Shown here piece after piece: positions 18,718 through 49,075 of a stretch of DNA of 64,000 bases. Positions within the stretch are counted from its first letter, which is position 1. The number at the start of each line of letters is the position of its first letter. A model generated the notes under the pieces. That model saw nothing but the letters and a program-made list of their open reading frames with translations. It ran no database searches and was not told where the DNA came from. Source of the stretch: Burkholderiales bacterium PBB3 (GTDB lineage: Bacteria; Pseudomonadota; Gammaproteobacteria; Burkholderiales; Burkholderiaceae_C). The translations under genes and the position numbers were made by a program. The stretch lies in the NCBI GenBank assembly GCA_002256115.1, contig NKIK01000003.1, positions 194,280 to 258,279 on the forward strand, given 5' to 3'.

Positions 18718-18743
18718 ATAGGGCGAAAGAGAAAGTGGCGCGG

Positions 18744-32030: not shown

Positions 32031-34561
32031 AAGGTGGTCTCTGTTGGGCTACTTTGCAGTAAATCGTCCATGGTCCAAAGGAGTACCCGCACATCCACCG
32101 GCTTGGTCAGATAGCCGTCGAAGCCGGCAGCCAGGCCCCGCGCCACATCGGCTGGCATGGCGTTGGCCGTCACGGCAACAAAGGGTACGTGCCGGAATCG
32201 CGCGTCCGCTTTCAGAATGCCCAAGACCTGGTAGCCGTCGAGTCTTGGCATATCGATATCCAGCAAAACAATGTCAGGCGTGTTGGCCAACGCCAGTTCT
32301 ATGCCTTGCTCCGGCTCGGCGGCAGACGTCAGTTTGAAGTTGGGCCGACGCGCCAATACGACTTCAATCAAGCGCAAGTTGATGGGGTTGTCGTCAATCG
32401 AGAGTACCCGGACCGTGCGCTCCAATGCGCCAGACTCCGTGGCGCAGGCGAAACCCACCTCGCAATCATCCTCGGCAGGCAGCACATCGGGGCCTTGCGG
32501 CAACACAATGCTGAACGTCGTACCCACCCCCACGGTGCTGTGCACCTCCACCGTGCCGCCCATCAGTTCGACCAAGCGCCGCGTGATGGTCAGGCCAATG
32601 CCAGTGCCTTCCACCGTGCCGGTATCGGCACCCAAACGATTAAAGGGTTGAAACAAGTCGCCCAGGCGCTCGGGGGCAATACCCGCACCCGTGTCACTGA
32701 CTGCAATGCACAGCAAGCCCTCTGGCATGACTTGTACCGACGCGGTAACGCTGCCACCGACTCGGTTGTATTTCACGGCGTTAGACAACAGGTTGATCAA
32801 CGCCTGCTTGAGCTTGGTGTGGTCGGCCCGCGCTGTCAGCCCGGCGGGTACCGCAAACTCCAGGCGCACGTTGTGTGCAGTCGCCAGGGTCTGGATCAGG
32901 TCGCGGCAGTCTTTCAGCAGTTCGGCCAGAATCACGCTTTCCAGCGATACATCCAGTTTGCCGGATTCGATTTTGGCCAGGTCCAGCACTTCATTGATCA
33001 AAGCCAACAAGTGCTGCCCGGCCTTCATGATTTCCTGCACACTGTCTTGCTGGTCGGCGTTCAGATCCTGGTCATATTCCAGCATCTGCGCAAATCCCAA
33101 AATGGCATTCATGGGCGTGCGCAACTCATGGCTCATGCTCGACAAAAAATCGGACTTGGCCAGATTGGCCCGCTCGGCCTCGTCTTTGGCCCCGGCCAAC
33201 TCCGCACGGCGCGCCAGTTCGGCGCTGAAGTCGGTAAATATATTGAAAGAGTACTGCACCCTGCCGTCGTCATCACGAATAAACCCCACATTGCTGGCCG
33301 ACGTAAAAACGGAGCCGTCTTTGCGCTGGATAGTCAGTTGGCCCATCCAGCCACGCTCGGAGGCAACCGCGTCCCGCGAAGCCAGTTTGAATGCCTCTTT
33401 TGCTTCCTTTGGCACTACTTTGGAGAAGTGTTGCCCCAAAATTTCTCCATCGCGGTAACCCAGTTCTTTTGCCTGCGCCTGGTTTTGATAGACCACGATG
33501 CCTTTGGCATCGGCAATGCCCACGCACTGATCACTGGAATCAAACACGCGTCTGAATAGTTTCAAGCGCTCCTGGACCTTCTTACGCTCTGAAATATCGG
33601 TCAAAAATGCCGTGTAACTGAGCTTGCGGTCATGTTGTAGCGGTGTGACCACCAGCTCGACCGGGAACACTTCGCCGTTTTTACGCTGGGCAGTGGCCTC
33701 TATTCTTTGACCCGGCGTAGTCATGCCAACGGCCTTGCGCCCAGGCACCAAATGGCGGTAGATACCGCGTTGGCTGGTGGGATCAAACCGCTCGGCCTCA
33801 GGCACCAACGTGCTTTGCACTGTAGCCCCCACGGCATCTTCCGCCGTCCAGCCAAATATGGTCTCGGCCCGGTGGTTCCAGGCGGTGATGTGCCCTTGCG
33901 CATCGATGCCCACCACTGCGTCGGGCACATCTGCCAACACGGCCTTGAGGTGCAGTTGCGACTCCTGCAGCTGCCAGGCGGTTTGATGCGACGCGCGCCC
34001 TACCACAATCAGCGCCGCTATACCCGCCAGCAAGACCAGCGCCACCAAACGGTCAACATCACCGCCGGTGACCAGGCCGACAGTCGCCGTGGGCAACAAA
34101 GCCCCCACCACAAAGCCCGCCATGGCCATGCGCTGCTCTGACACCGAAGCGACGATAACCGCGCTGACACAAAACAACATACTCACAAACAAGACCGCAT
34201 AGGGGCCATCAATGGGCCACATCATCAGCGCAGGCCCCACGGACCAGCACAGGCCGGAGACGGTGATCTGCAGCGCAAATACGCGCTGCCAAAAGACGAT
34301 ATTTTGTCCGGACGGAGCCGCCCTAAAGAATGCCCAACAGTTGAAACCGGCCGCTAGACACATGCAAGCCATGGCGCTGACCCAGATCACTTTGGGCTGG
34401 TGCGGCAGGTAGGGCCAAAGGACCCACGCACCAACAATGGTTGCAACGGCCGACATGGCCACATCCAACACATTTCTTCTGTAGGCCAGATACAGAAGCG
34501 CCGATTCAACGGACAAGTCGCGGTGGGGCTGGGGCATCGTTTGATGATACCCACGCACCAC
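32027..34561 (-). CDS. Hybrid sensor histidine kinase (membrane N-terminus, multiple PAS, HisKA, HATPase, REC)
   Basis: SHELRTPMNAILGF, ATP-lid motifs and C-terminal REC; overlaps the neighbouring operon genes by 4 bp. Confidence 0.85.
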   Translation of the reverse strand: MVRGYHQTMPQPHRDLSVESALLYLAYRRNVLDVAMSAVATIVGAWVLWPYLPHQPKVIWVSAMACMCLAAGFNCWAFFRAAPSGQNIVFWQRVFALQITVSGLCWSVGPALMMWPIDGPYAVLFVSMLFCVSAVIVASVSEQRMAMAGFVVGALLPTATVGLVTGGDVDRLVALVLLAGIAALIVVGRASHQTAWQLQESQLHLKAVLADVPDAVVGIDAQGHITAWNHRAETIFGWTAEDAVGATVQSTLVPEAERFDPTSQRGIYRHLVPGRKAVGMTTPGQRIEATAQRKNGEVFPVELVVTPLQHDRKLSYTAFLTDISERKKVQERLKLFRRVFDSSDQCVGIADAKGIVVYQNQAQAKELGYRDGEILGQHFSKVVPKEAKEAFKLASRDAVASERGWMGQLTIQRKDGSVFTSASNVGFIRDDDGRVQYSFNIFTDFSAELARRAELAGAKDEAERANLAKSDFLSSMSHELRTPMNAILGFAQMLEYDQDLNADQQDSVQEIMKAGQHLLALINEVLDLAKIESGKLDVSLESVILAELLKDCRDLIQTLATAHNVRLEFAVPAGLTARADHTKLKQALINLLSNAVKYNRVGGSVTASVQVMPEGLLCIAVSDTGAGIAPERLGDLFQPFNRLGADTGTVEGTGIGLTITRRLVELMGGTVEVHSTVGVGTTFSIVLPQGPDVLPAEDDCEVGFACATESGALERTVRVLSIDDNPINLRLIEVVLARRPNFKLTSAAEPEQGIELALANTPDIVLLDIDMPRLDGYQVLGILKADARFRHVPFVAVTANAMPADVARGLAAGFDGYLTKPVDVRVLLWTMDDLLQSSPTETTL

Positions 34562-35020: not shown

Positions 35021-36373
35021 TCACGACGGCCGCACAGGCTTCTTGCCGCGCTTGGGCGCCAGCAATACCGACTCACCCACTCTTGCAGTGGCGAATTTCT
35101 GGGGTGGTGATGGCTCCATCACCCCCGCCTCTTGAGTGAGCTTTGTCATTTCTGGCACCTGGATTTGAATGCGCTCGTTCAGTCGATTGAGCCCTGCGTT
35201 CCAGTGCCACAGCATCCTCGCGCCCACCGCGTCAAACCCTGGCGTGTGCTTCATGCGTTGAATCAATTCCGGCACGGTCGCCGCCACGGCGGTGCACACC
35301 AGCTCAGCGAGTTCGCGTTGGCGCGGGGGGTCGATACCCAGAAACACTTGCATGAATTGCCACAAGGGCTTCAGATGGGTCCAGCTCTTGCGGCCATCGA
35401 TGGACATGCCTGGCGGGTTATCCGCGTAGCTGTCATAGGCCACGATGGTCAGCATGTCGTAGATGGGCGCGACATGCACATCCTCCAAGCCGGTGTACAA
35501 AAAAGCAAGATTCTTGGTGTGGCAGTCTGAGTTGCCAAGTGCGTGCGTCAACAGCAGTGTCACGGCCAGTTGCTCGTAGGACGCGCGGCGGCCCTGGGGT
35601 GGCACATAGTTGCGCACAAGGCGCGCGGCGCGCTCCCAGGTGCCGTCGTACTTTTGCTCGGCACCCATGCCCAGCATGCTGCAAAAGTCTTCAAAACCCA
35701 GCCGCTCGCCAGTGAGCGGATCAATGTCAAAGCGCTCGACCACGAGGATCTGACCGTCGTCGGAAACCACTGTTTCTGCAACCGCGAAGCCGGTGGCTTT
35801 GGCCGCTTGCATACACAGGTGCTCGTTGAGCCCCACAAGCGGTTGCTTGTCTGAGCTAGCTTTGACGATGTGGCGCTCTGTGGATACGGTGCCTTTGCGG
35901 AACAGTGCTTTGGTCTCTGGCGTCAGAAATTTGGGGACCACCCCCGACACGCCTGAGGCCGCGTACTGGCTCATCAATTGCAGAAACACTTCGCGCGAAG
36001 ACTCACCATGCAACAGTCCATCGAGTTCATTGGCGGCGAGTTGCGGATTGGGACTACTGCCTGCGCTTACCTGAACGCGACCGATCATGTTGTGCCCCAC
36101 CACCGACAGCAGATCCATGGGACTTGCTCCCAGATGCGGCCCCAACTGCTCTTTGAGGACGGACAGTAAAAACCCCTCCGGCAGACTCACCTGAAAGAAA
36201 GGGTGCAGATTGGGCCACTCCCAGCTGGGGGACTGCACGGGCATGAGCAGCGACACAAAATCCTCGGGAGGGGTTCCGTGCAGGTAGGTCAGGTAATGCT
36301 CAAACCCTGCGGGGCTCTGCAACACCGCCACATGTCTGCCGTTCACGAAGACATTGAGTTCTGCCTTGCTCAT
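35021..36373 (-). CDS. hipA: HipA-family Ser/Thr kinase toxin (type II TA)
   Basis: Alignable to E. coli HipA (VERFDIDPLTGERLGFEDFCSML.. and GNSDCHTKNLAFLY, against GATDGHAKNFSVF); 450 aa. Confidence 0.85.
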   Translation of the reverse strand: MSKAELNVFVNGRHVAVLQSPAGFEHYLTYLHGTPPEDFVSLLMPVQSPSWEWPNLHPFFQVSLPEGFLLSVLKEQLGPHLGASPMDLLSVVGHNMIGRVQVSAGSSPNPQLAANELDGLLHGESSREVFLQLMSQYAASGVSGVVPKFLTPETKALFRKGTVSTERHIVKASSDKQPLVGLNEHLCMQAAKATGFAVAETVVSDDGQILVVERFDIDPLTGERLGFEDFCSMLGMGAEQKYDGTWERAARLVRNYVPPQGRRASYEQLAVTLLLTHALGNSDCHTKNLAFLYTGLEDVHVAPIYDMLTIVAYDSYADNPPGMSIDGRKSWTHLKPLWQFMQVFLGIDPPRQRELAELVCTAVAATVPELIQRMKHTPGFDAVGARMLWHWNAGLNRLNERIQIQVPEMTKLTQEAGVMEPSPPQKFATARVGESVLLAPKRGKKPVRPS

Positions 36374-36690
36374 GGCTTGCCGGACGCTCCGTGCGAAGCA
36401 TTGCGCAGTTCTTGCTGCAAGTCGTTCAAATTGGGGCGGCGGGTAGCGGGCACAAACTCCATCTCCACATCCAACACCTGCAACAAACGCAAGAGCTTGC
36501 CTGCGGATAGATCGCTGGAGGCCCCCGTCTCAAAGCGCGACAGCGTCTCTTGTCGCAATCCGGCAGCTGCTGCTACCTCAGTCTGCGTCTTGCCCGCTGC
36601 CTTGCGCAGCTGCTTGTACCGCGCACCAACGTCGGGCAGTGTTAATAAGGGATTTGCGTTTGGCATCATAAATTGGAGAAAATTTTCCAA
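36370..36690 (-). CDS. hipB: HipB-like XRE-family HTH antitoxin
   Basis: HTH GKTQTEVAAAAGLRQETLSRFE; 4-bp overlap with hipA. Confidence 0.8.
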   Translation of the reverse strand: MENFLQFMMPNANPLLTLPDVGARYKQLRKAAGKTQTEVAAAAGLRQETLSRFETGASSDLSAGKLLRLLQVLDVEMEFVPATRRPNLNDLQQELRNASHGASGKP

Positions 36691-36847
36691 ATCATGCTGT
36701 TCATTGCATATTTCGTCAATCCAAAATATGTTTTTCAGATCAAACTATTTGTAATTTTTGTAGAAATATGATTTGAATAGCATATTTTGGGCAAGGGAAG
36801 AAACGGCCAATGCTGGGTAAGCGCGCTGGCAACCGTGCCGATCCCCC

Positions 36848-36915
36848 TAGATTAGTGGCCAAAAGTGCCTTTCAACCGGCGATAGTGCGGGGGCAGCTCC
36901 TGAATTAGTAGCAAT
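36848..36915 (-). repeat. Dispersed repeat family copy 7, a slightly diverged long form
   Basis: Sequence ctagattagtggccaaaagtgcctttcaaccGGCGATAGTGCGGGGGCAGCTCCtgaattagtagc. Confidence 0.8.
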
Positions 36916-37092
36916 TCGCGCAGATAAAGACTCGGCATCATGTACTGCATGGACATATCGGCAGCCAACGGCTATTGGAGGCTCATTTCGGTCTTTGCAG
37001 CCTCTCCGAAGCGGTCGGTCAAAATGCAGTTTTAACGTTGGAGGCCAGGCGCGGCTGAAGGCCGTCGCCTCTGGGCCGACCAGTTAGATTTC

Positions 37093-37580
37093 TTATAGGC
37101 CAAGAACATCACAGTGAAGTGGCCTGAGGTGAAACTTGCGGCGTTCGCGGCCCTGCCACTCACGCGGTACTTTGTCGAGTTCGCAGTTGAGTGTGACGCT
37201 GTTGACAATGCCAAACCCCAAAGCTACCCACTCAAACTCTCGCGAGTCTGATCCTGCATTTACCTTAAACCAGAATGCCTGTGTCGGGTCGCTTGAACTG
37301 GGAGGCATGCCAGGGTATCGCACCGGGGTCGCTTTCCCGGTAGCCACAACGACAAGGGCAGTACCCCGCGCGTCGGTAGTCGCGTAAATTGGGCGTTCGC
37401 AATCATCCGAGCCCAAGCTTCTGTAATCCAGGCACGTTGAGATGCCTGCAGCTCGCACTGGCTTTCCCGACTTTGTCAGCGTCACAGTAATCGGCGTAAG
37501 GACGACGTTCTCCGCATAAGCGGCAGGTACAGCCAAAGCGAGTGCTAAGGCGATATGAATGTGCCGAACGTAATACATGC
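37093..37580 (-). CDS. Hypothetical secreted protein in a low-GC patch. Start at ATG 37580, signal peptide MYYVRHIHIALALALAVPAAYA.
   Basis: Signal peptide present. The surrounding 36.7-37.85 kb is markedly AT-richer than the window average. Confidence 0.5.
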
Positions 37581-37849
37581 TCGCGTGAAATCTACTTAAT
37601 GTCCAGAGCACCAATAAGTGCTCGATAAACTGGCTGATGCACGATATTCTGGTCATCAAATCCTCCCGAAAGTGGCTTGCAGCCTCACTTTCACTGTTTT
37701 TCGACTTTGTTAAATGGATATCGATATTCTGGCAGACCTGCCGAGACTGGCGGATACAAAACCATGTCCACAGACTCCATGAGACTGAAATTGGGTGACC
37801 GTCCTGAACGACAGCTATCACCCACAGATCGCAACGAGCAGGCTGAATC

Positions 37850-38566
37850 TCAATCGCCCAACTTTCCCCACAACTGATCAAACGCCCCCTGAAACTGCCG
37901 CACCAACGCAGCGTCATTCGTCACAACCACGTTCTCTTCGTTATGAGCCGCAGCACTGCGCGTCCAGTTGTAGCTGCCGTTCAGCAGCCACTGCCCATCA
38001 AAGATCGCAAACTTGTGGTGCATGTGCGCATCGGTGCGGTCCACGGCGGTGGGCACACCGGCGGCGCGCAGTCGGGTCACATCGCTGCCGGAGTCGGTTT
38101 CTTTGTCGTTGTCGGTGATGAAGCGCAGGGCCACGCCGCGTGCATGCGCGGCCAGCACCTCTTGGGCGATGCGGTCGTCGGACACGGTGAACACACAAAA
38201 ATCTACGCTGCGGTGGGCGCTGCGGAAGTGCTCGACGATGGTGTTCAGGCAAGCTTCACCAGGGCTAAAGAATGCGCTGGAGCGAATGGCTTGCGCTGGC
38301 GTACGGGCCACGTCCAGCGCGCGCACCACGGCCTCCGTCCAGCGCAGCACGGCCATGGGGTCTTGCTGTTCGGCCAACCGGTTGCGCGCCAGTGTGAAAG
38401 CATGGTTGCGCAGTTGGCGAAAGCCGTCTTCCGGCGGCTGGGCCTGGCGCAGGGTTTGGGCCAGGCTGTGTTTCTCTTCGTCGTCCAAGCGCAGGTCGGC
38501 CAGAGAGGCTTCCAACTGGCCTAGCAAGTTTTCCATGTCTGCGGGTGTGGCAGTCATCGTTTCCAC
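37850..38566 (-). CDS. Single-HKD phospholipase D superfamily nuclease (Nuc/NucT-like) with an approximately 90-aa N-terminal extension. Last gene of the 5-gene operon.
   Basis: HKD motif HHKFAIFDGQWLLNGSYNWT (HxK..D......GSxN) at nt 37950-38025. A 2-bp gap separates it from the upstream giant gene. Confidence 0.8.
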   Translation of the reverse strand: METMTATPADMENLLGQLEASLADLRLDDEEKHSLAQTLRQAQPPEDGFRQLRNHAFTLARNRLAEQQDPMAVLRWTEAVVRALDVARTPAQAIRSSAFFSPGEACLNTIVEHFRSAHRSVDFCVFTVSDDRIAQEVLAAHARGVALRFITDNDKETDSGSDVTRLRAAGVPTAVDRTDAHMHHKFAIFDGQWLLNGSYNWTRSAAAHNEENVVVTNDAALVRQFQGAFDQLWGKLGD

Positions 38567-38568
38567 AC

Positions 38569-41500
38569 TCAGCCCTCGGTCTTCTTGCCACCGCCCTGGG
38601 CACGCGGTGCCCGTGGCTCGTTGGCTTTGGCCAGCAGCAGCTCCAGCCGTTTACTGATGCTGTGGTCCAGGTCCATGCGCTTCTCCGTCGCGGCGATCAG
38701 CGGCATGATGACTTTGCGGTATGTCACCGCCAACTGCAGCACGGCCTCAGCCATTTGCGCTCCCTCACTGGGTTCTTTGGGTCCCGCTGCCGGGCGCAAC
38801 TCATCAACCGACCGGCTCACATCCAGCAGTGCATTGGCAATGCGCGTAGAGCCGTCCGCATCCGCCCCACCCGCTTTGCGCTGGCGCACAAATTCGGCGC
38901 AGATGGCCTGCCAACGCGCATCCTCCTCGGGGCTTGCGGTGCCCATCAGTTGGGCCAGCTTGAGTAGGTTTTCTTGCGTGCCGGTGGTCAGGGTCTGGGC
39001 CTCACCCCGGTAGTGGTCGCGCAGCAGGGCGTCCAGTTCATCCTCATGCATCAGCCCGGTGATCTGGGCAGCCAGCTTGGTCATATTGCGGTAGCTGCCC
39101 TGTAGCTTGAAAGCGGGCTCGGTGCGGTAGTCGTCACGCTGGGCGGCTGAATCGATATAGGCCTGGTTCACCTTCAGCAGCAGATCGCGCGCGCGGAACA
39201 GCCTTTGCATGAGTGCTTTAAGCTCTTCCAGTTCGGCACTACTGTAAGCATGGGCAAAGTCGCCGCTGGCCACCTCATCCCCCTGGGCCAGGCGCACCAG
39301 CAATTGCACATCGCGCGGGTCGCGCGATGACAGGGGTGCCAGCACCGGATTGCTGGTCAGGCTGTTCTCAATATACGACTGGGCGAACAGGGCTTCGCGC
39401 CCAGCCAACACATCGCCCAGGTTGTAGATATCGGCCCGGTTGGCCAGCATGTCCGGGATCTTGAAGACCTCGCCCGACTCGGTATACGGGTTGCCCGCCA
39501 TGGCGATGGCAAAGCGCTTACCGCGCAAGTCGTAGCTGCGCGCCTGGCCTTGCCACATGCCTTCAATGCGGCGCGTGCCATCGGCCAGGCCGATGAACTT
39601 CTGCAAAAACTCCGCACTGGTGTGCTGAATGTCGTCCAGGTAGAGCATCACATTGCTGCCCATGGCCAGGCCCAGGTTCAGCTTCTCCAGCTCTTGGCGG
39701 GCAGCGCTGTTGCTGGCCGACGCAGGGTCAAGCGCCGTCACGTCATGGCCCAGTGCGGGGCAGTTGATGCGCACAAACACCAGCCCCAGCCGGTCGGCCA
39801 CATATTCCATCAGCGTGGTCTTGCCATAGCCAGGCGGCGAAATCAGCAACAACAGCCCCATGCGGTCCGTACGGCTGGTGGCACCGGTGGTGCCAATCTG
39901 CTTGGCCAGGTTGTCGCCAATCATCGGCAGGTACACCTCGTCGATCAGACGGTTGCGCACAAAAGATGACAAAGGCTTGGCCTGGAACTGGGATAAACCG
40001 AGGCGCGATTTTTCTGCGCTCAGCAGTTCGTGGTGCAAGCTTTTGAGCGCTGCAAACGCGGGCACCACCGTTTCGGCATGCGCGCGGTAGCGGCTCCAGA
40101 AGTCATTCAAATTGATCTGCAAGCTGCCTTGATTGATGCGGGCGTGTTCGCTGCGCAAACCGGTCACCGTGGCATCCAGCACCACATTCACCCTGCGGCG
40201 CTGGCCTGGCACAGCCAATACGCAGGCGGCATCGTCTACCCATGCGATGGCGGTCGGCTGGTGCGCCAGTGCAAAGGCATGCATCCAGGCACGCGCCAGC
40301 AACCAACGCTCGGCGGGTGTGGATGCATCCAGGCTGTGTTGCCAATCCAGCGCTTGGCCCAGGCGCTCCAGCTCGCGCTGCAGTGCGCTGGCCATGTCTT
40401 CGCCCGCGCCGCTGATAACCCAGGCCTGCTCTGTACCTGCAGCCCCAATCTCCCGCAGCCAATAGCTCGCGGCTTGATGGCACGCGGTCTGGTGATGCCC
40501 GTTATCAACGGACACTGGCGACAACGCGAAGCCGCTCTCTTCGGCAAACTGCAGCACGCTGTGCGCGGCCTCCACTTCCAGTTTTTGCAGGCTATCGCCA
40601 GCGCCAAAGAGGTGTTGCACTTGCAGCGCTGCACGCGCACGCCGCCGCCAAGACGCCTGCGCCTCACCCGAGCCCAAGTGCTGCCAAACCAATGTCGCCA
40701 GCGCGCGCTCTGTGGGGCCCCAAGTCAGCAAGCCTGCCTGCTCTTGCATGGGCACCAAAGCAGCAACCAAGCGCACCGCATCTTCGTCGTGCACGCCCTT
40801 TTCGTACCCTTCTTGATAACGGGCTGCGGCAAATTGGCGCACGCCCTCCAGCAGCGCCGCATGGCCGTCTTCACCTTGCGCCACCAGCGCCAGAGTTTGT
40901 GCCCAGGTCAGTGTGGCCTGCCCTTTTAGAACCTCTTCAATCCAACTTGCCGCCAAGTACTCTGCGCGGCTGATCAGCGCGGTCTCAGACGGCAGGGCTT
41001 GTTGCCAATACGGGCGATACGCGTCCAGCCGCGCGTCTTGCAGCGGTGCCCGGTAATCCGTGCCCGTCAGGTAAAAGGCCATGCTGTCGCCCAGCGGAGC
41101 CAGTGTGAGCTCCAGCGGCTGGCGGCTGATGGTGAAAGCGTGGCGGCCCAGGCGCAAATGGTTGCCGCCCTCAGACACCAGCTCGCGCTGATCACGCACC
41201 GCGCGCAAGGCGTGGTCGCGGCAAGTCTTGAGGCGCGTGTCCAGATCATCCGCAGCCACCTGGTCACCCAGGCCCCGCATGTCTGCAATCAGAGTGCGCA
41301 GCTTGGCAATCAGCAAGTCCGCCGCAAAGTAGCTGTGCACTTCTTCCAAGCCACTGAGCTGGGCCACACGGCGCTGCGCCCCGTCCAAAATGCGACCGGC
41401 CGCTGCAGCCAGAGCCTGCACGCGCTGCTGGCGCGCTTGCACCAGCGTTTGCTTGCGCGCGGTCAGCGCTTCGTAGACGGCCTCGCGTTTCTCTGTCACA

Positions 41501-43743
41501 TCGGCCAAGAACTCAGCGTGCTCGGCAAAGCGGCCCTCCAGCTCTTCCAGTTGGGCCAGCAGGCGGGTCAATGCGTCATCGCATTTTTCGGGGGTGTCGG
41601 CAAAGTCCAGCGCGTTCTCCACCGCTTGGCCAAACAATTTGAACTGGGCCTGAAACTCGGCTGCCGCCTCGCGCGAGCCCAGTGCCTTGCGTCGGTTACG
41701 CGCATCGGCTCGCAAGCGGTTGATGTCGGTGTACAGCGCAGAAATGCGCTCCAGAATGCCAGTGCGCTGCACGGCATCGCCGCCGGGCAAACCACCCAGC
41801 TGTTCGGTCAGCAGGTCCAGGCCTGCGGCCGTATCGTCCAGCCCCTGCAGAATGCTTTGTAGGCCCTGGCTGGTGGATACCTTGGGCAGCTCAGTGGCCA
41901 CTTGTGCCAGTTGCTGCTGGTGGGCGTGGAAGGCCTTTGCATCGGCCATGAAGGCCATGGCGCGCTCACCCACGCGCTGCTGCTCGGCCACCAGCTCGGT
42001 GTGCATGGCCTCTATGCGGGGCAGATCGGTGTAGCGCAGTTCTTTCAGGGTTTCCAGGTGGCCGCGGCGTTCGCGCAGGCGGCCCAGCGCCGCCACAAAG
42101 TCTTCGGGCTTGCGCCATAGCGTGCTGGCAATATCCACCACCAGTGCCTTGTGCTGGGCCTGTGCTTCGTCCAGGGCCTTGGCGGTCTCCTTGCGGATTT
42201 GCTCTACCTTCTCAAACTCGGCCAGCGTGGTGCGCGCCGCATCGCCAATGCCTTGCAGGTCTTGCAGCAAAGCACCCGCCTCGGGGTCGGCCAGCCAAAA
42301 ATAAGCGTCTGTGACGCGTCCGCATTGGCGAATCAAATCCTCATAGGCGGTGCGGGTGGGCGCTTGCTCTTGCAAGGCGCGCGCAATGCCCATCAACTCG
42401 GCAATACCGCGCACCAGCTCCGCATTGCCGATACGGCTGAAAAAGCCGGTGCCCGCATTCGCGCCGCCCGCGTACTCCTCGCTAAAAAACGGGGTTTGCC
42501 ACAGCTGCATCGGGTGCAGCCGCGTGGGCTCACCCATGCCCGCCTGAAACACCAGCACCTTGCCATCGGCAAACAGCGCGTAGCCATTGGCCACGATCGG
42601 CGCGGCCAAGGATTTATCGATCAGGTTGTAGGTAAACAGCGCATAGTGGCCGCTGACCGGCTGGTAAAACAGATACAGCACATCCTCGCCATTGGGCGAG
42701 CGCAGCATGCGCTTGAAGCGCAAATTGCGTGCAACATCTTCAGGCAAATCAAAGTGCTTGAACTCGCCCGACTGCAGGTAATAGCCACCCGGAAACACAA
42801 TGCCGTGGTCCTCCGGCAACTGCACACACGACAAGCCAATGGCATCAATGCGCGCTACCTGCAGCGTGCGCTGGTTGAAGACCAGATAGCGGGTAGTTTG
42901 TTCGCGATAGGGCCGCACGCGCAGCAAAATGAGTGCGCCCAGCTTGGCGTAGGCCACCTCGGCATCGGTGAGCGACTGGCTCTTGTCGTCCACCGGCTCG
43001 CTGTAAATGCCCAGTCCGGTTTCGGTGTTGTTCTCTACCTTAACGGTCAGGTCGCCACCCACCGTCTCCACGAATACCGTGTCCAGAATATTGATATGCG
43101 GATGCTTGCCGTCCACATGGTTTTCACGGGTGGTTGGCGTCCATTCAAAGTCGTGGCTAGGCGGTAGCGCAATGTCGCGCTCGCCACGGTTGTCCAGATA
43201 CTGCAGCGTGCCATCTGGCGACAACTGCCAGCGGAACACGCGCACGTCGTGCACTTGCTGACCTATCTGAAAAGCCGCCAGCAGCTTACCCTGCGTGACC
43301 CGCAGTTGCAGCAGTTGGGCTTGCTTGTAATAGGCGTAAAGCTCTTTGAAGTCGGATGCGAAACGCGCGTCTTCCAGAAAGCTGCCAGCCAGAGGCACAT
43401 CTTCCAGATCCTGCTCGGTACCCATGCGGTACAGCGCAAAAACATCCCCCACGCTGGTCTCTTTGCGCAGGCCAATGAAAACGTTATAGCCAAACAGCAG
43501 CAGATCGCCAATGCGCACGATGTCGCGGGCGACACAGTTGTTTTGGGTGCGGGCACGGGTGCGCAGTACCAGCGTTTGCTCGGACTTGCCAAACTCTAGC
43601 GTGCGGGCGGCATTGAGCGTTTGTGCTTTTTTAAGCAGCACTTCGCCCTGCACGGTCAGGCGATTCTTCAGCAGCTCGTAGCTATTGCTGCCAGCGACCA
43701 GACTCTCAGTGGAGTCTGCCGCCGCGGATGTGTCAGAAGGCAT
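38569..43743 (-). CDS. Giant 1724-aa protein: uncharacterised N-terminal region, long coiled-coil middle, and an AAA+ (AAA_5/MoxR-dynein-like) P-loop ATPase domain near the C-terminal third
   Basis: Walker A LLLISPPGYGKTTL (nt about 39811-39840), Walker B VMLYLDDIQH (nt about 39620-39650) and the AAA_5-like segment AMAGNPYTESGEVFKIPDMLANRADIY. Heptad-like Ala/Glu/Leu/Arg-rich stretches span aa about 480-900. Confidence 0.7.
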   Translation of the reverse strand: MPSDTSAAADSTESLVAGSNSYELLKNRLTVQGEVLLKKAQTLNAARTLEFGKSEQTLVLRTRARTQNNCVARDIVRIGDLLLFGYNVFIGLRKETSVGDVFALYRMGTEQDLEDVPLAGSFLEDARFASDFKELYAYYKQAQLLQLRVTQGKLLAAFQIGQQVHDVRVFRWQLSPDGTLQYLDNRGERDIALPPSHDFEWTPTTRENHVDGKHPHINILDTVFVETVGGDLTVKVENNTETGLGIYSEPVDDKSQSLTDAEVAYAKLGALILLRVRPYREQTTRYLVFNQRTLQVARIDAIGLSCVQLPEDHGIVFPGGYYLQSGEFKHFDLPEDVARNLRFKRMLRSPNGEDVLYLFYQPVSGHYALFTYNLIDKSLAAPIVANGYALFADGKVLVFQAGMGEPTRLHPMQLWQTPFFSEEYAGGANAGTGFFSRIGNAELVRGIAELMGIARALQEQAPTRTAYEDLIRQCGRVTDAYFWLADPEAGALLQDLQGIGDAARTTLAEFEKVEQIRKETAKALDEAQAQHKALVVDIASTLWRKPEDFVAALGRLRERRGHLETLKELRYTDLPRIEAMHTELVAEQQRVGERAMAFMADAKAFHAHQQQLAQVATELPKVSTSQGLQSILQGLDDTAAGLDLLTEQLGGLPGGDAVQRTGILERISALYTDINRLRADARNRRKALGSREAAAEFQAQFKLFGQAVENALDFADTPEKCDDALTRLLAQLEELEGRFAEHAEFLADVTEKREAVYEALTARKQTLVQARQQRVQALAAAAGRILDGAQRRVAQLSGLEEVHSYFAADLLIAKLRTLIADMRGLGDQVAADDLDTRLKTCRDHALRAVRDQRELVSEGGNHLRLGRHAFTISRQPLELTLAPLGDSMAFYLTGTDYRAPLQDARLDAYRPYWQQALPSETALISRAEYLAASWIEEVLKGQATLTWAQTLALVAQGEDGHAALLEGVRQFAAARYQEGYEKGVHDEDAVRLVAALVPMQEQAGLLTWGPTERALATLVWQHLGSGEAQASWRRRARAALQVQHLFGAGDSLQKLEVEAAHSVLQFAEESGFALSPVSVDNGHHQTACHQAASYWLREIGAAGTEQAWVISGAGEDMASALQRELERLGQALDWQHSLDASTPAERWLLARAWMHAFALAHQPTAIAWVDDAACVLAVPGQRRRVNVVLDATVTGLRSEHARINQGSLQINLNDFWSRYRAHAETVVPAFAALKSLHHELLSAEKSRLGLSQFQAKPLSSFVRNRLIDEVYLPMIGDNLAKQIGTTGATSRTDRMGLLLLISPPGYGKTTLMEYVADRLGLVFVRINCPALGHDVTALDPASASNSAARQELEKLNLGLAMGSNVMLYLDDIQHTSAEFLQKFIGLADGTRRIEGMWQGQARSYDLRGKRFAIAMAGNPYTESGEVFKIPDMLANRADIYNLGDVLAGREALFAQSYIENSLTSNPVLAPLSSRDPRDVQLLVRLAQGDEVASGDFAHAYSSAELEELKALMQRLFRARDLLLKVNQAYIDSAAQRDDYRTEPAFKLQGSYRNMTKLAAQITGLMHEDELDALLRDHYRGEAQTLTTGTQENLLKLAQLMGTASPEEDARWQAICAEFVRQRKAGGADADGSTRIANALLDVSRSVDELRPAAGPKEPSEGAQMAEAVLQLAVTYRKVIMPLIAATEKRMDLDHSISKRLELLLAKANEPRAPRAQGGGKKTEG

Positions 43744-43751
43744 GCAGACCC

Positions 43752-44288
43752 TTACCAGTCAGCACGCAACAAGGCGACTAGCTCGTCACGGCCTGGCTGC
43801 GCCTGAAGCCACTGGCGAATGCGTGCCAGCTCATCCATGGTCTCAGCGCCGTGGCGTTGGCGCAGCACGGCTTCGCGTCCTTGGCGCAACTCGTTAGTCT
43901 GCAATTGGCGCTGCCAAGCATCGGTCAGAATCTCGTCGAGCCGGCTGCCCAGACCTGCTGCCACAAATGCCTGCCACTCGCCGCGGGCAAACCAGACGTT
44001 CTGGCACGCAGCGCAACGGTCCACGCGGAAGTCGGGCTGCGCGCCTACGCGGAAACGCTGCATCAGGCGCGCGCACGCAGGGCAATGCCGGGCGATCGGG
44101 TCTTCATCGGCAGCGATGGCTTGCGCCACCGGCGGCACCGGTGTTTTGTCGCGCCAGGCGCGGTAGTCGTCGAGTTGTAAAAGCTGGCCTTCACAACTGA
44201 CGCATTCCAGGCCCTGCAGTCCGGGTGCCAATTCGCAGACTGTGAGTTCGGTGTGGGCCTCGCAGCCGCAGCGCAGTGTTGATTTCAT
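43752..44288 (-). CDS. Zinc-ribbon protein with four CxxC pairs
   Basis: CGCEAH...C, CVSC, CPAC and CAAC in 178 aa. Gaps of 8 bp and 15 bp to the neighbouring genes. Confidence 0.6.
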   Translation of the reverse strand: MKSTLRCGCEAHTELTVCELAPGLQGLECVSCEGQLLQLDDYRAWRDKTPVPPVAQAIAADEDPIARHCPACARLMQRFRVGAQPDFRVDRCAACQNVWFARGEWQAFVAAGLGSRLDEILTDAWQRQLQTNELRQGREAVLRQRHGAETMDELARIRQWLQAQPGRDELVALLRADW

Positions 44289-44303
44289 GGGTGTGCTCCT
44301 GCG

Positions 44304-46466
44304 TTACTCGGGTTTCTGGCCACTTTTGTTGGTCTTGGACAGCAAGGAGGCAATCGCCAGGTCTTTCAGCTCGCCCGACGAGTTGCCGAGCGACCCGACC
44401 AGTTGCCCCAGGTCGTCCACCATATTGCGTTTGCCCGACAGGTGATCTTTCAGCCCGATCTTCAGCGTATCGCTCTTGGCGATAGCGCCGTCGATGCCCT
44501 TGCCCACCGCCAGCGCACTGACGAAACGCTCGAAGTAGCTGCCGTCGCCGCCCACCATCTCGATCTTGGCATTGGCCAGTGCTTTGCCCAGGACTTCGGC
44601 CTGCTCTTTGGCGATGGCGGTTTGTGCATCGATGCCCTTGAGGGTCTCGGTATGCGCCATCTCCAGCCGCATGCGGTATTCCTCGTGGTCGCGCGTTTCG
44701 CTGCTCATGGCCTTCATGGCTTCAAACTTCTCGCGCAGGCCCTTGGCCTCTGCAGAGAAGCGTGCTTGCACGTTCTGGGCATCAGCTTCGCCTGCCTTGA
44801 TCGTGGCTTCGGCTCCGGCGGTGCGCACAGCCACTTCGGCCAGGCCCAGTTTCTCTTTGCCTTGCGCTTCAGCTTCCAGTTTGGCCTGCAGGCCCGTGGC
44901 TTCGGCTTGCGCGCGCGCTTCGATCACCTGCGCGTCTGCCAGGCCGGCTTTGATGGTGGCTTCCACGCCCGCTGTACGCACCGCCACATCGGCCAGGCCC
45001 AGCTTCTCTTTGCCTTGCGCTTCAGCCTGGTTACGCGCCTCAATCACATGCACATCCGACAGACCCTTTTTCTCGGTGGCGTCGGCAGTCACCATCATCA
45101 CGCGGGCGGCCGCCAGGCCAGGGGCGGCACTCACTGCCTCCATGCCTTCCGCCTCCCGCTTTTTGGACTCGGCGTTCTTCTCTGACACCTTGAGTCGCGC
45201 ATCCGCCATGGCGACTTCTTCGCTAGCTTTGTGGCGTGCACTGCGTTCTTGCGACTCTGCCGCCTTCACTTCCGCAATCATTTTTTCTTCGGCCTGACCT
45301 TCAGCCAGGATGATGGTGGAGCGCTTGGTGCGCTCTGCCTCCGCTACCACGCGCAGTTCCTTGATGGCTTCTTCTTGCTCGGCCACGGTGCGGTCCACCA
45401 CGATGCGTTCGCGGATCACGTCGGCAATGGCTTTCTTTTGCACCTCCAGCGCGCGTTCTTTGTCGATCTTCTGCAGGGCCACTTCTTTCTCGCGGTCCAC
45501 CACTTCCAGGTCGCGCGCACGAATCACTTTTTCTTCTTCAATGGCCACCGCGCGCTTGCGGTTGTTCTCGGCCACTTCTTTTTCGCGCAATGCGTTTTCG
45601 TTTTGCACTGCTACCTGCTGCTCGCCTTGCAGGCGCGCCATCTCGGATTTGGTGCGTTCCTCAGATTGGATCTTGGAAGTCTCGGCCTCTTCGCGAGCGC
45701 GCATGGTGGCCACTTCCCGCTGCTGGCGGGCTTGGGCGTCGGCGGCCTGGCGATCCAGCTCCAGCATGGTCTCCTGGGTTTCCACGTTTTTCTTCTTGAT
45801 CTGCATCTCTTCGTTGCGGCGCAGCTCGTTGGTGCGCACGCTCTCCACCGCCGTCAGCTCGGTGATTTTCTTGATGCCCTGGGCGTCCAGAATATTGCTC
45901 GCGTCCAGCTTGGACACCGGTGTTTGCTCCAGGTAGTCAATGGCAGCATCTTCGAGCACATAGCCCGACAGGTCGTCGCCAATCTGGCGAATGATTTCGT
46001 CGCGGAAATGGTCGCGCGCCTGGTACAGGTCCACAAATTCCATGGACTTGCCCACGGTTTTGAGCGCCTCTGAAAACTTGGAGGAGAACAGGTCTTCCAA
46101 CGCATCCTGGTTGGAGGCTCGCTCGCAGCCCACGCCTTGGGCGACCTTCAAAACGTCTTCCGCGGTTTTGTTGACGCGTACGAAAAACTTGACCTTGATG
46201 TCGGCGCGGATGTTGTCCTTGCAGATCAGCCCTTCGCGGCCCGAACGGTCAATCTCAATGGTCTTGACCGAGATGTCCATCAACTCGGCCTTGTGGATGA
46301 TGGGGTAGACCATGCAGCCTGTGAAAGTGACCGTAGGCTCAGCGCGCATGGTGTTCACGATCAGGGCGTGGCCCTGCTCAATCTTCCGGTAAAAGCGCGC
46401 AAACAATACAAACATGCCGAACACGATGACCGTGATGACGGCTGCTGCGACGATGATGGGTTCCAT
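44304..46466 (-). CDS. yqiK: Flotillin-like SPFH/Band-7 protein (YqiK-like) with a long C-terminal coiled coil containing tandem approximately 40-aa repeats
   Basis: N-terminal TM plus SPFH domain (HALIVNTMRAEPTVTFTG...IRADIKVKFFVRV) and Ala/Glu-rich repeats such as EAQGKEKLGLADVAVRTAGVEATIKAG. Confidence 0.8.
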   Translation of the reverse strand: MEPIIVAAAVITVIVFGMFVLFARFYRKIEQGHALIVNTMRAEPTVTFTGCMVYPIIHKAELMDISVKTIEIDRSGREGLICKDNIRADIKVKFFVRVNKTAEDVLKVAQGVGCERASNQDALEDLFSSKFSEALKTVGKSMEFVDLYQARDHFRDEIIRQIGDDLSGYVLEDAAIDYLEQTPVSKLDASNILDAQGIKKITELTAVESVRTNELRRNEEMQIKKKNVETQETMLELDRQAADAQARQQREVATMRAREEAETSKIQSEERTKSEMARLQGEQQVAVQNENALREKEVAENNRKRAVAIEEEKVIRARDLEVVDREKEVALQKIDKERALEVQKKAIADVIRERIVVDRTVAEQEEAIKELRVVAEAERTKRSTIILAEGQAEEKMIAEVKAAESQERSARHKASEEVAMADARLKVSEKNAESKKREAEGMEAVSAAPGLAAARVMMVTADATEKKGLSDVHVIEARNQAEAQGKEKLGLADVAVRTAGVEATIKAGLADAQVIEARAQAEATGLQAKLEAEAQGKEKLGLAEVAVRTAGAEATIKAGEADAQNVQARFSAEAKGLREKFEAMKAMSSETRDHEEYRMRLEMAHTETLKGIDAQTAIAKEQAEVLGKALANAKIEMVGGDGSYFERFVSALAVGKGIDGAIAKSDTLKIGLKDHLSGKRNMVDDLGQLVGSLGNSSGELKDLAIASLLSKTNKSGQKPE

Positions 46467-46523: not shown

Positions 46524-47153
46524 CTAAGGCTCCGCCACCACCTTGTAGCGTGCTGTCTTTTCGTCATAGCCCACGATGCGTGCACTGCTACCGCGTGCCA
46601 GTGCATTGGGCACAGGCGTCCAGATGCGAATATTGATGCTGGCACCGTGCTGGGCCACCTCGGCGCGGCCCATCTGCTCATCCACCGTTTGGGTCAGCAC
46701 TTTGCAGGTCTGCCCCACCAGCGATGCATTGTTGATGGCAGCGTGGGTGACGAACAAACCACGCAGCGGCCGAATCATGCGGGCACTGACCGTGACCGCC
46801 AAAGACAGGCTGGCCAGGGCCAACACAGCACCCGCGCCGTAGTTGGCTGCGGCACCACCCAACCAGGGCAGCACCCACATGGCCCCCAGGCAGCTCAGTG
46901 TCCAAGCGACCAATATGACCAGGCTGACCGCGATAGAAAATGGAACCCCGTGCAGGCCGAAAGCGACCACATAGCTGGCCACCGTGCTGATCTCGTAGCC
47001 GTCCACATCGGCGGCAGAGCCAGGCTCCAGGTCCAGAGACTCTAAATCGACCACGCCCAGCAGGGCCAGCAGCCAGTAAAAGATCACGACCCCTAAAAAA
47101 GTCGTGAAGAGTGCGGTGGGAAATGCGACCACCGCGTCCAAAAAGCTCAGCAT
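46524..47153 (-). CDS. yqiJ: NfeD-family / YqiJ-like (DUF1449) inner-membrane protein, partner of flotillin
   Basis: A 209-aa ORF with N-terminal TM helices and a C-terminal OB-fold-like region. Gene order mirrors E. coli yqiJK. Confidence 0.7.
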   Translation of the reverse strand: MLSFLDAVVAFPTALFTTFLGVVIFYWLLALLGVVDLESLDLEPGSAADVDGYEISTVASYVVAFGLHGVPFSIAVSLVILVAWTLSCLGAMWVLPWLGGAAANYGAGAVLALASLSLAVTVSARMIRPLRGLFVTHAAINNASLVGQTCKVLTQTVDEQMGRAEVAQHGASINIRIWTPVPNALARGSSARIVGYDEKTARYKVVAEP

Positions 47154-47406: not shown

Positions 47407-48771
47407 CTAGCGTGCGGGTGCCACCGCCAACCGCCACAGCGAGGTGACCTCTAGCGCACGCGCCGCGTGCAGCGGGTCGGCCGCATCAAAGGCCTTGCCA
47501 TGCACCGGCTTGGTATCCAGCCGCCCCAGCACCTGCAGGCCCGCGCCAGCAATCGCGTCCAACAATTCAGCGCGGCTGCGCAGGCCCAGGTGTTCGGCCA
47601 AATCCGAGAGGATCAGCCAGCCCTCGCCCTGCGGCTCCAAGTGCGCGGCCAGGCCCGCCAAAAAGCCCAGCAGCATAGCGCTGCCTTCGTCATACACCGC
47701 GTGCTCTATGGGTGAGCTGGGCCGGGCGGGTAGCCACGGCGGGTTGCACACGATCAGATGCGCCAGCCCTGGCGGGAATAGGGATGTCTGCAACAACTGC
47801 ACCGGCGAATCAGCGCGGCCCGCCACGCCCAGCCTCTGCAAATTTTCAGCCGCGCAGGCCAGGGCGCGCGGGTCCAGATCGGTGGCCACGATATGGCCCA
47901 CACCCCGGCGCGCCAGCACCGCAGATAACACGCCCGTGCCCACACCAATGTCAAACGCCGTCAGCTTGGCGGCGGCCTGCGCACCGTGGGCTCCTTGGAC
48001 TCCTTGGACTACTTGGACACTTGGCAGCGGTGCCTGCTGCACCAAGCTCACATACTCACCCCGCTGCGGAGAAAACACGCCGTAGTGCGGGTGGATGCGG
48101 TTGTGGGGCGCAGCGCCCAGGGCGGGCACTTCCACACCGTTTTTGCGCCACTCGTGCGCGCTGATCAGGCCCAGCAGCTCACGCAATGACGCTACCGAAG
48201 CCACAGCGTCCGCACCCGGCGGGCCCCAAGCCTCAGCACAGGCCTGGCGCGCATCGGGGGCGCGCTTGAGTGCGATACCGTAATCCGCCTCAAAGCCAAT
48301 CAGAAGCATGCCCAGCACGCGCGCACGCTGCGCCTGGGCTTGGCGGTGCAAATGAAAGGCAGTGGCCGGATTCGATGCCTTTTCGGCCACTGAGGCCGTG
48401 GATAGTGCGGGAGCAGCTCCTGAATTAATAGCATTGCGCTCTGGCGCGCCCGCTAGTTGCTTTGCCCTCTTGATGGCCTTGGCACCCTTGGCGGCTTTGC
48501 CGCTGGGGCCCGACGCATCGGCCCGCCGCGCGAGCGCCTGCAGCATCTGCCGCGCGTTTTGAAAATCACCCCGCCACAGCAGCGCCGTGCCTTCGCAGGC
48601 CAGGCGGTAAGCGACATCGGCGCTCAGGGTGTCATCGGCCAGCACCACGCGCTTGGGTGGGCTGACACCACGCTCTGAGCGCCACTGCGCGCTGCAGGGC
48701 TGGCCGGCTTCTTGCCAGTGGATGCGGGCTTCGCCCGATGTTGGTGAAGTCGTCATAAGTTCAGTAGCCAT
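47407..48771 (-). CDS. Class I SAM-dependent methyltransferase (MTS-type small domain, NPPW motif) with an N-terminal domain of unknown function. A dispersed-repeat copy lies in-frame at 48365-48435.
   Basis: SAM fold FDIGVGTGVLSAVLARRG..ATDLD and motif IV LIVCNPPWLP. The repeat encodes ..[17 protein letters not shown].. Start taken at MATEL.. to limit overlap with ccdB. Confidence 0.65.
   Translation of the reverse strand: MATELMTTSPTSGEARIHWQEAGQPCSAQWRSERGVSPPKRVVLADDTLSADVAYRLACEGTALLWRGDFQNARQMLQALARRADASGPSGKAAKGAKAIKRAKQLAGAPERNAINSGAAPALSTASVAEKASNPATAFHLHRQAQAQRARVLGMLLIGFEADYGIALKRAPDARQACAEAWGPPGADAVASVASLRELLGLISAHEWRKNGVEVPALGAAPHNRIHPHYGVFSPQRGEYVSLVQQAPLPSVQVVQGVQGAHGAQAAAKLTAFDIGVGTGVLSAVLARRGVGHIVATDLDPRALACAAENLQRLGVAGRADSPVQLLQTSLFPPGLAHLIVCNPPWLPARPSSPIEHAVYDEGSAMLLGFLAGLAAHLEPQGEGWLILSDLAEHLGLRSRAELLDAIAGAGLQVLGRLDTKPVHGKAFDAADPLHAARALEVTSLWRLAVAPAR
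48365..48435 (-). repeat. Dispersed repeat family copy 9, inside the methyltransferase ORF
   Basis: Sequence gatgccttttcggccactgagGCCGTGGATAGTGCGGGAGCAGCTCCtgaattaatagc. Confidence 0.85.
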
Positions 48772-49075
48772 GGAGGGCGTATTCCAGGGCGTCCCAAATG
48801 GCTTCGGCATCGCCTTGCAGGTTGGCTACTGGGCGGCGCAGATCGCCGGGCTCATGGGAGGTAATCGCCAAAGTCTCCAACACAAGCATTTCACCCGCAA
48901 CACTCAGCCAGGGATTCAGTGTGGTGGGAGGCGCTGTTTGCGTATCCGGGCGCGCCAACGCCACGGTGATCACCGCTACGGGGCGTTTCAGAAAATTGCT
49001 TTGAATGCCGACGACGAAGGGATGACTGTCGCGCAACTCTTCGACCGGGTTGGGGTACACATCGAACTGAGCCAT
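48761..49075 (-). CDS. ccdB: CcdB-family gyrase-poison toxin
   Basis: MAQFDVYPNP...HPFVVGIQSNFL resembles F-plasmid CcdB (MQFKVYTYKRES..LFVDVQSD); 104 aa; ATGA overlap with the upstream gene. Confidence 0.7.
   Translation of the reverse strand: MAQFDVYPNPVEELRDSHPFVVGIQSNFLKRPVAVITVALARPDTQTAPPTTLNPWLSVAGEMLVLETLAITSHEPGDLRRPVANLQGDAEAIWDALEYALHGY

Follow-up and report, generated by a model that had tools for sequence, protein, structure and literature searches.

The present analysis concerned one very large gene in a 64,000-nucleotide stretch of Burkholderiales bacterium PBB3 (contig NKIK01000003.1, positions 194,280 to 258,279), hereafter the window, and the protein of 1724 amino acids (aa) that it encodes. 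Judged from its sequence, the gene almost certainly specifies a giant AAA+ ATPase of the BacE/PA3728 type, belonging to the already catalogued Pfam family DUF3686. The giant protein is encoded beside a membrane flotillin and an NfeD-like membrane partner, and for this reason its most likely role is in membrane stress or remodelling and not in DNA repair. All coordinates of the gene, its domains and its partner genes are collected in Table 1.

The open reading frame (ORF) was verified as a real gene on the minus strand with an ATG start, and its GC content at the three codon positions was 0.69, 0.43 and 0.74. An earlier note, made by a reader who saw the letters of the window only, had recognised no motif in the first 450 or so residues and had been unable to name a family for the protein. 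Both statements had to be revised. Pfam PF12458 (DUF3686) matched aa 36-482 with an E-value of 4.5e-197 and 655.4 bits against a cut-off of 25, the match covering the whole profile (positions 2-448 of 448), and PF25472 (DUF7902) matched the helical region behind it (E 6e-23, 81 bits against a cut-off of 26). The protein displayed a collinear full-length architecture of DUF3686, DUF7902 and a single C-terminal AAA+ module. The protein thus matched an annotated family over its full length and had a defined set of partners, the kind of finding which the earlier note itself had named as counting against its view. More than 5171 homologues were found in a search of 5.8 billion proteins. The best 120 shared 66-79% identity over 98-100% of the length and came from Comamonadaceae and other Burkholderiales, such as Variovorax, Ramlibacter, Ideonella and Aquabacterium; most of the named ones among these 120 carried the NCBI product name "DNA repair ATPase". 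With the DUF3686 domain as query, an exhaustive HMMER search gave 708 cluster representatives (clustering at 50% identity), of which 254 had E ≤ 1e-30; full-length members measured 1590-2036 aa, and DUF3686 lay at the N-terminus in nearly all. Among about 186,000 bacterial and archaeal representatives (one genome per GTDB species), relatives of the gene were present in at least 591 species. In an alignment of 26 diverse members (alignment A1), SPPGYGKT, DDIQH, GNPYT and QGSYR were invariant. A sequence search of the PDB with the whole giant protein gave no match, and none of the family models of NCBIfam represented the giant, the flotillin, the NfeD-like or the zinc-ribbon protein.

The gene linkage of the family was evaluated in 84 sources, namely the 80 best loci, 3 further loci and the window, in which ORFs were called and an iterative search was run with each neighbour, nine query proteins being used in the screen; 83 sources gave sets of hits and 82 had a scorable giant gene. 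The order NfeD-like, flotillin, giant on one strand was found in 76-79 of the 84 sources, essentially in every locus with enough upstream DNA: the flotillin gene lay 5' of the giant gene in 79, and a homologue of the NfeD-like gene lay directly 5' of the flotillin gene in 76. The loci spanned six phyla (Beta- and Gammaproteobacteria, Myxococcota, Actinomycetota, Acidobacteriota, and metagenome-assembled genomes of Zetaproteobacteria and Clostridia), the start and stop codons of the module often overlapped by 1-4 nucleotides (nt), and the module was syntenic and vertically conserved within genera. Genes for DUF2170 and then PspA/IM30 stood directly 5' of the module in 37 loci, all of the taxon-named ones proteobacterial. 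A homologue of the phospholipase D (PLD) superfamily was detected in 22 loci, 3' of the giant gene and on the same strand in 20 of them, and a CorA-like protein with two transmembrane (TM) segments and a GMN motif followed the PLD gene in 7 loci. The zinc-ribbon gene was present in 15 loci, in 14 of them between flotillin and giant, and the taxon-named ones were mostly Burkholderiales. The modules of Actinomycetota, Myxococcota and Acidobacteriota contained no PLD or CorA-like gene. In the Pseudomonas group, the six-gene order DUF2170, PspA, NfeD-like, flotillin, giant, PLD was observed in five of six loci. The window itself contained, on one strand, the NfeD-like, flotillin, zinc-ribbon, giant and PLD genes in this order, all five of which were syntenic with Variovorax.

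This gene set has been described before. Ravi et al. (mSystems 2024; preprint 2020) reported an operon that joins the CesT/Tir-like YjfI (DUF2170) and PspA (YjfJ) with three more genes, including a protein with three TM segments of the YqiJ/YuaF type, to which a PLD (HKD) hydrolase is added in some Proteobacteria; abbreviated operons without PspA are more widely distributed, and a chaperone-like, ATP-dependent role in a sub-membrane assembly was proposed (PMC11237479). As the window lacks the DUF2170/PspA pair, its locus is the abbreviated form of this operon. The giant protein is an ordinary member of a known family, whose operon and architecture were already published in 2020 and 2024. In Pseudomonas aeruginosa, the bacABCDEF operon (PA3732-PA3727, or PA14_16140-16200) was determined to be one transcript by reverse transcription PCR and has a sigma-54 site; mutation of bacA impairs biofilm, rhamnolipid and virulence, and BacB-F accumulate 6-13 fold in the mutant (PMC10948618). 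PA14_16180 was identified as the SPFH protein PaFlo3 and PA14_16160 as a short NfeD (PMC13086221). Among cystic-fibrosis isolates, mutations recur in PA3728, which is listed as "ATPase" (PMC8190622). The published primers for the PA14_16180/16190 junction were mapped on Pseudomonas loci. The forward primer fell on the 3' end of the flotillin gene with 0-2 mismatches, and the reverse primer corresponded to the T-E-N-N-C-I-A codons of the propeller motif of the giant gene, for which one substitution and one indel were needed; matching by substitutions only failed, possibly due to a typing error in the published supplement. The predicted amplicon in locus L027 was 546 bp versus the published 557 bp. 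Since the Pseudomonas gene order and the junction primers fit, BacE belongs to the giant ATPase family. No paper was found under the family names DUF3686 or PF12458, and the published work was reached via the neighbours PspA, flotillin and DUF2170.

The database label calls for a different explanation, in which the giant protein is an SMC/Rad50-like coiled-coil ATPase that acts on DNA in repair. In its favour are the name that Pfam gives to DUF3686 ("ATPase involved in DNA repair"), the product name used by NCBI, a weak similarity of the P-loop to RuvB and RuvB_N, and the possibility that the neighbouring PLD protein is a nuclease. However, the AAA+ domain is contiguous and C-terminal, not split into ABC heads on an antiparallel coiled coil, so the likeness to SMC/Rad50 that the earlier note had drawn did not hold. 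No DNA-binding domain was detected in the giant protein by Pfam scans, the invariant partners are membrane proteins, and no paper backing the label was offered by the literature. The role in DNA repair is thus considered extremely improbable, and the product name "DNA repair ATPase" seems baseless and apt to mislead, and it should be corrected.

The ATPase module was described by the earlier note as a single P-loop domain of AAA_5 type, placed after about 1300 residues that are at first beta-rich and then helical, and this description was borne out by the AlphaFold models and by the motifs, all of which were found where it had placed them. Walker A (SPPGYGKT, aa 1302-1309, nt 39817-39840) and a Walker B of the hhhhDD type (YLDDIQH, aa 1368-1374, nt 39622-39642) were followed by AGNPYT (aa 1416-1421), in which N1418 is sensor 1, and by PDMLANRAD and then IYNL (aa 1430-1442); R1436 is the putative Arg finger, and both R1436 and N1418 were conserved in alignment A1. 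The AAA_5 profile scored 24.7 bits, just over its cut-off, among weak AAA, AAA_22 and AAA_5 matches of Pfam at aa 1295-1425. Three strands were modelled between Walker B and sensor 1 (aa 1392-1417), consistent with the pre-sensor-1 beta-hairpin, and the series N-P-Y-x-x-x-G-x-x-x-I-P-D-x-L-x-x-R after sensor 1 resembles the MoxR/dynein signature. The assignment to the AAA_5/MoxR-like type is supported by the profile, the strands and the motif, and the AAA_5 profile together with the closest fold placed the module in the MoxR/AAA_5 clade. In sequence, the surroundings of the P-loop resembled classic AAA or RuvB proteins more: a search of the PDB with the family profile gave matches confined to the P-loop neighbourhood of such proteins, with marginal E-values. 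RuvB itself was considered and rejected, since the similarity extended over about 50 residues round the P-loop and reached 18-20 bits against equivalog cut-offs of 282-299. Conservation was by far highest in the AAA core, where 40% of the columns were at least 90% conserved among the 26 diverse members; this argues for an active, probably working enzyme.

The remaining anatomy was derived from two AlphaFold2 models built on an alignment of 33 sequences, one of aa 1-1200 (mean predicted local distance difference test score, pLDDT, 82.6) and one of aa 1201-1724 (pLDDT 84.6). Behind a long N-terminal helix, the region from aa 57 to 416 was modelled as all-beta, with strands of pLDDT about 85-92, which agrees with the beta-rich N-terminus of the earlier note, and a conserved strand motif R-T-(E/Q)-N-N-C was located at aa 65-70. 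The top-ranked Foldseek matches in the PDB were propeller-containing proteins (E 3.5e-6 to 1e-3), such as Elp1, a DDB1-type chain, YncE, prolyl oligopeptidases, WDR91 and EED, and because of these matches the modelled DUF3686 fold is a beta-propeller. Proteins that combine a propeller with helices, namely IFT-A, nucleoporin and clathrin heavy chain, were also matched, and the propeller-then-helices layout of the giant protein is reminiscent of membrane-coat proteins. The following region (aa 421-850) was composed of 16.7% A, 12.8% L, 9.3% R and 8.6% E. The earlier note had proposed about 400 residues of Ala/Glu/Arg/Leu-rich coiled coil here; its composition and its helical nature were confirmed, and the extent was overstated, because the heptad pattern was confined to aa 622-833. 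Only there was the windowed heptad score well above that of shuffled sequences (142 residues vs 14 ± 18), in segments at aa 622-652, 661-694, 722-767 and 803-833, and the global Fourier test for a periodicity of 3.5 residues over aa 421-850 was negative. The long-range mechanical coupling that the earlier note had imagined for this architecture is possible but unsupported.

A separate observation was made in the second helical domain, which is otherwise poorly conserved. An invariant loop, G-Y-x-K-G-V-H-D-x-D-A (aa 979-989, nt 40777-40809 on the minus strand), sits between two helices; its residues G983, H985 and D988 did not vary in the 26 diverse members, and no Pfam model spans it. The GVHDxDA loop may bind a metal or a ligand, or make contact with a partner. 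Ahead of the AAA+ core, F1261, N1264, L1266, G1276 and Q1282 were invariant in alignment A1, within the motif FVRNRLIDEVYLPMIGDNLAKQIG. Behind the lid, a helical extension (aa 1541-1620) with the motifs FKLQGSYRNM (aa 1545-1554) and DHYRGEAQTLT (aa 1576-1586) was conserved, and the tail from aa 1621 to 1724 was variable and partly of low confidence. No TM segment was predicted in the giant protein.

Among the partners, the first was assigned as NfeD/YqiJ-like on the basis of its topology, its gene position and two papers (PMC11237479, PMC13086221). It combines 3-4 TM segments with a soluble, beta-rich domain at the C-terminus. By sequence, no relevant Pfam match was found in 22 diverse members (Phage_attach appeared once, E 0.0079), and its family profile gave no meaningful match in the PDB. 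The flotillin-like partner consists of an N-terminal TM segment (aa 1-27), an SPFH/Band_7 domain and a long E/A/K-rich coiled coil, and was 73% identical to its Variovorax orthologue. An AT skew of -0.33 (plus strand) at 44000-46000 of the window coincided with the flotillin gene. It is the trace of an A-over-T-rich coding strand (minus), matching the E/A/K/Q-rich coiled coil, and no signal of replication or of a mobile element. The zinc-ribbon partner recalls YdjG, the zinc-ribbon protein of the pspA-ydjGHI operon of B. subtilis. The PLD gene starts 2-12 nt past the stop codon of the giant gene, the alternative start being taken from the gene call of L084. Its product has an extra helical stretch of about 100 residues at the N-terminus and no TM segment, and its closest PDB sequence was MitoPLD/Zucchini ("mitochondrial cardiolipin hydrolase", 4e-27), versus Nuc at 1.4e-8 and NucT at 6e-6.

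The CorA-like gene was absent from the window. This protein of about 260 aa followed PLD in L001 (15983-16765), L003 (15938-16717) and L005, which represent Variovorax, Eleftheria and Aquabacterium. The corresponding slot of the window held an unrelated ORF of 187 aa (37093-37656) whose start resembles a signal peptide and which had no Pfam match, within a stretch of lower GC (36700-37850, GC 0.54), which suggests replacement or loss. The scan of the operon for sigma-70 promoters and terminators revealed nothing beyond the shuffled expectation. A TGGCAC was seen by eye 5' of the first gene, and it was not called as a sigma-54 promoter, its GC element being one base out of register.

Based on the gene linkage and the domain anatomy, a mechanism was proposed in which the ring-forming giant ATPase assembles, reshapes or recycles flotillin/PspA scaffolds under envelope stress; we give this about an even chance. 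The N-terminal propeller and the long helical arm would bring the soluble giant protein to the cytoplasmic side of the membrane by binding the flotillin assembly, which the NfeD-like partner would anchor, and also PspA polymers in loci that have them. Its C-terminal MoxR-like AAA+ modules would form a ring through Walker A, the hhhhDD Walker B, the sensor-1 Asn and R1436 acting in trans. By hydrolysing ATP, the ring would build up, reshape or dismantle these membrane scaffolds when the envelope is under stress. There the PLD partner may act on lipids or, with lower probability, on nucleic acid; its nearest relative in the PDB, the "cardiolipin hydrolase" MitoPLD, fits local lipid remodelling. 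A bolder version, speculative and on the doubtful side, would take the BacE-type giant as the missing ATP-driven remodeller of scaffolds beneath the bacterial membrane: a MoxR-like ring whose propeller-tipped arms grip flotillin domes, and PspA/ESCRT-III polymers in the loci that have them, and open, reshape or recycle them in membrane repair, where the MitoPLD-like hydrolase would turn cardiolipin into fusogenic phosphatidic acid, so that the giant would be a functional counterpart of Vps4 from a different AAA+ clade.

Several points weigh against the remodelling mechanism. The Walker B of the family carries an invariant Asp-Asp (D1370-D1371) in place of the usual Asp-Glu of AAA+ proteins, and with Asp instead of the catalytic Glu hydrolysis may be slow or act as a switch. 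The canonical MoxR ATPases pair with a partner that contains a von Willebrand factor A (VWA) domain; no VWA/MIDAS partner was found among the recurrent neighbours or the Pfam-annotated genes of three loci and the window, to which no dedicated VWA profile search was added. No homologue of DUF2170 or PspA was found in the whole 64-kb window by tblastn and jackhmmer. The relatives of MitoPLD/Zucchini include nucleases, which leaves the chemistry of the PLD partner, lipid or nucleic acid, unsettled. Deletion of the flotillin gene paFlo3 in PA14 changed biofilm by about 20% only (PMC13086221), so phenotypes may be subtle. The searchable literature contained no experiment on the giant ATPase itself, and its contact with flotillin or PspA, its ring formation and its ATPase activity are all things that we infer.

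The invariant Asp-Asp would also suit a slow switch, and this opens an alternative in which the giant protein is an ATP-regulated scaffold or sensor, a client or adaptor of flotillin microdomains whose nucleotide switch recruits or activates PLD (in some lineages a CorA-like channel) at damaged membrane with no mechanical reshaping. The effector-like genes directly 3' of the giant gene in 22 (PLD) and 7 (CorA-like) loci are in accordance with it, the long helical arm and the propeller are typical interaction modules, and the unexplained GVHDxDA loop would find a place in it. However, R1436 and N1418 are conserved as in working ring ATPases, and the effector genes are missing from the modules of Actinomycetota, Myxococcota and Acidobacteriota, so that the recruitment of effectors cannot be the core role. 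This scaffold or sensor function is regarded as unlikely.

The possibility of an anti-phage or abortive-infection module, in which the giant ATPase senses infection and triggers a PLD nuclease or membrane effector that kills or arrests the cell, was also evaluated. Phage infection induces PA3728-PA3732 (PMC12041424), the CorA-like membrane protein follows PLD in some relatives, a hipBA module adjoins the operon, and the PLD partner was weakly similar to DrmC, DpdK, MkoB and NucT. However, the induction by phage is also expected of a phage-shock (Psp) envelope response, and most loci have no PLD. PADLOC-DB 2.0 provided no convincing model for the giant (best match LmuB, E 5.6e-4, 17 bits, in the coiled-coil region), the flotillin, NfeD-like and zinc-ribbon proteins had no matches in it, and those of PLD to MkoB, DpdK and DrmC were weak. 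The module is vertically conserved within genera and coupled to the envelope-stress protein PspA, and its surroundings in the window are ordinary chromosome and no defence island. A function in defence is therefore considered very unlikely.

As the family is in Pfam, the operon is published and the Pseudomonas orthologue lies within a studied biofilm and virulence operon, the discovery value of the locus is small. The family is nevertheless a worthwhile experimental target, being widespread and tied to flotillin and often to PspA, and for the dynamic control of bacterial PspA and flotillin assemblies the giant ATPase is an obvious candidate motor.

Table 1. The giant ATPase gene, its predicted domains and the partner genes of the module (positions are those of the window)
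Feature	Position	Strand	Basis
Giant ATPase gene, DUF3686/BacE (PA3728)-type	38569-43743	minus	ATG start, 1724 aa; ORF and translation, Pfam, homologues
N-terminal long helix (aa 6-51), aa 1-55, ahead of the propeller	43579-43743	minus	AlphaFold model m2b763d294de6
Predicted beta-propeller, about 7 four-stranded blades, DUF3686 core, aa 56-420	42484-43578	minus	Pfam, model, Foldseek
All-alpha region, aa 421-850, helices of up to 58 residues	41194-42483	minus	Model, heptad score, composition
DUF7902 within the helical region, aa 603-686	41686-41937	minus	PF25472 match
Low-confidence linker (aa 849-875) and small three-stranded beta unit (aa 878-901), aa 851-925	40969-41193	minus	Model
Second helical domain, aa 926-1180	40204-40968	minus	Model, alignment A1, regional conservation
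Pre-AAA strands and helices, aa 1181-1290, with the conserved motif given in the text (aa 1261-1284)	39874-40203	minus	Models
AAA+ alpha/beta core and lid, aa 1291-1540	39124-39873	minus	
Conserved post-lid helical segment, then variable tail, aa 1541-1724	38572-39123	minus	Alignment, model, conservation
NfeD/YqiJ-YuaF-type membrane protein (short NfeD), partner 1, 209 aa, first gene of the module	46524-47153	minus	Hydropathy, position, papers
Flotillin-like protein, partner 2, 720 aa	44304-46466	minus	Band_7 E 6e-12 (aa 28-171); weak Flot match
Zinc-ribbon protein, partner 3, 178 aa, four CxxC pairs, lineage-specific	43752-44288	minus	Zn_ribbon_TFIIB E 2e-6
Single-HKD PLD-superfamily hydrolase, partner 4, 235-238 aa, accessory	37850-38566	minus	PLDc_2 E 4e-30; HxKxxxxD at aa 183

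Three antisense ORFs (40030-40929, 40999-41862 and 42151-43167) lie within the giant gene, which is overwhelmingly conserved at the level of its protein, and the earlier note had dismissed such ORFs as artefacts. This was corroborated: stop codons interrupted them in 24-45% of the related loci, and their identity between loci was 32-52% versus 66-79% for the closest sense-strand homologues, which is consistent with non-coding shadows. Around the module, the window contained two-component kinases, hipBA, queF, yaaA, valS and PBP1C, and a type I restriction system about 22 kb off. The hipBA-type toxin-antitoxin pair (35021-36690, minus) consisted of HipA at 35021-36373 (HipA_C E 4e-39) and an overlapping 5' HTH_3 gene at 36370-36690. 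Directly 5' of the module, a 467-aa S-adenosylmethionine (SAM)-dependent methyltransferase (47407-48810, minus) matched the PADLOC model "mad2" with E 1.3e-15 and showed weak HemK/PrmC-like similarity. Two paralogous PAS hybrid histidine kinases (833 and 844 aa) flanked a receiver-HD_5 (HD-GYP-like) response regulator at 28480-34561 (minus), and a second HD_5 protein, with DUF3369, was located at 59505-61091 (plus). The plus-strand stretch 8333-20588 encoded HsdM (8333-10633) and HsdR (13304-16381) of the type I restriction-modification system, and in the same stretch a PBP1C-type penicillin-binding protein (16378-18717) and an Eco57I-type methylase (18894-20588).

Compared with known systems, the module is closest to the operon of Ravi et al. 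and to bacABCDEF, with which it shares the giant ATPase family (beta-propeller, coiled coil and AAA+), the YqiJ/NfeD-type partner, the optional PLD (HKD) gene and the gene order; it differs from the full operon in having no CesT-like DUF2170 and PspA genes, and in its extra zinc-ribbon gene between flotillin and giant. The MoxR ATPases (CbbQ, NorQ and RavA) have in common with the giant protein an AAA_5 match over the cut-off and, as far as the modelled strands suggest, a beta-hairpin before sensor 1, whereas the giant protein has about 1290 additional residues at the N-terminus and about 180 at the C-terminus, and DD instead of DE in Walker B. SMC and Rad50 are also very large proteins that combine a P-loop ATPase with a long stretch of helices. 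Membership in that family was rejected: no SMC or Rad50 profile or PDB match was obtained, the Walker A, Walker B and sensor motifs all lie within aa 1302-1436, the N-terminus is a predicted propeller, and the ATPase is non-ABC and has no hinge or zinc hook. As in the SPFH-NfeD pairs YqiJK of E. coli and YuaF-FloT of B. subtilis, the NfeD-type partner is encoded 5' of the flotillin; to our knowledge, yqiJK of E. coli is not accompanied by such an ATPase gene. The coupling of an SPFH scaffold to an AAA+ machine recalls HflK/C-FtsH, in which it is physical as well as genetic, but FtsH is a membrane-embedded AAA protease of the classic clade, whereas the giant protein is soluble, MoxR-like and free of a protease domain. 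Vps4 and CdvC, whose action with ESCRT-III in eukaryotes and archaea is analogous to a remodelling of PspA, the ATP-dependent role put forward in PMC11237479, are defined by a classic-clade AAA module and an N-terminal MIT domain. They were likewise rejected as a family for the giant protein, in which no MIT domain was detected and whose invariant partner is flotillin and not PspA. The likeness to Vps4 and CdvC with ESCRT-III lies in the genetic link between an AAA+ ATPase and a protein of the ESCRT-III superfamily, here PspA in 37 loci.

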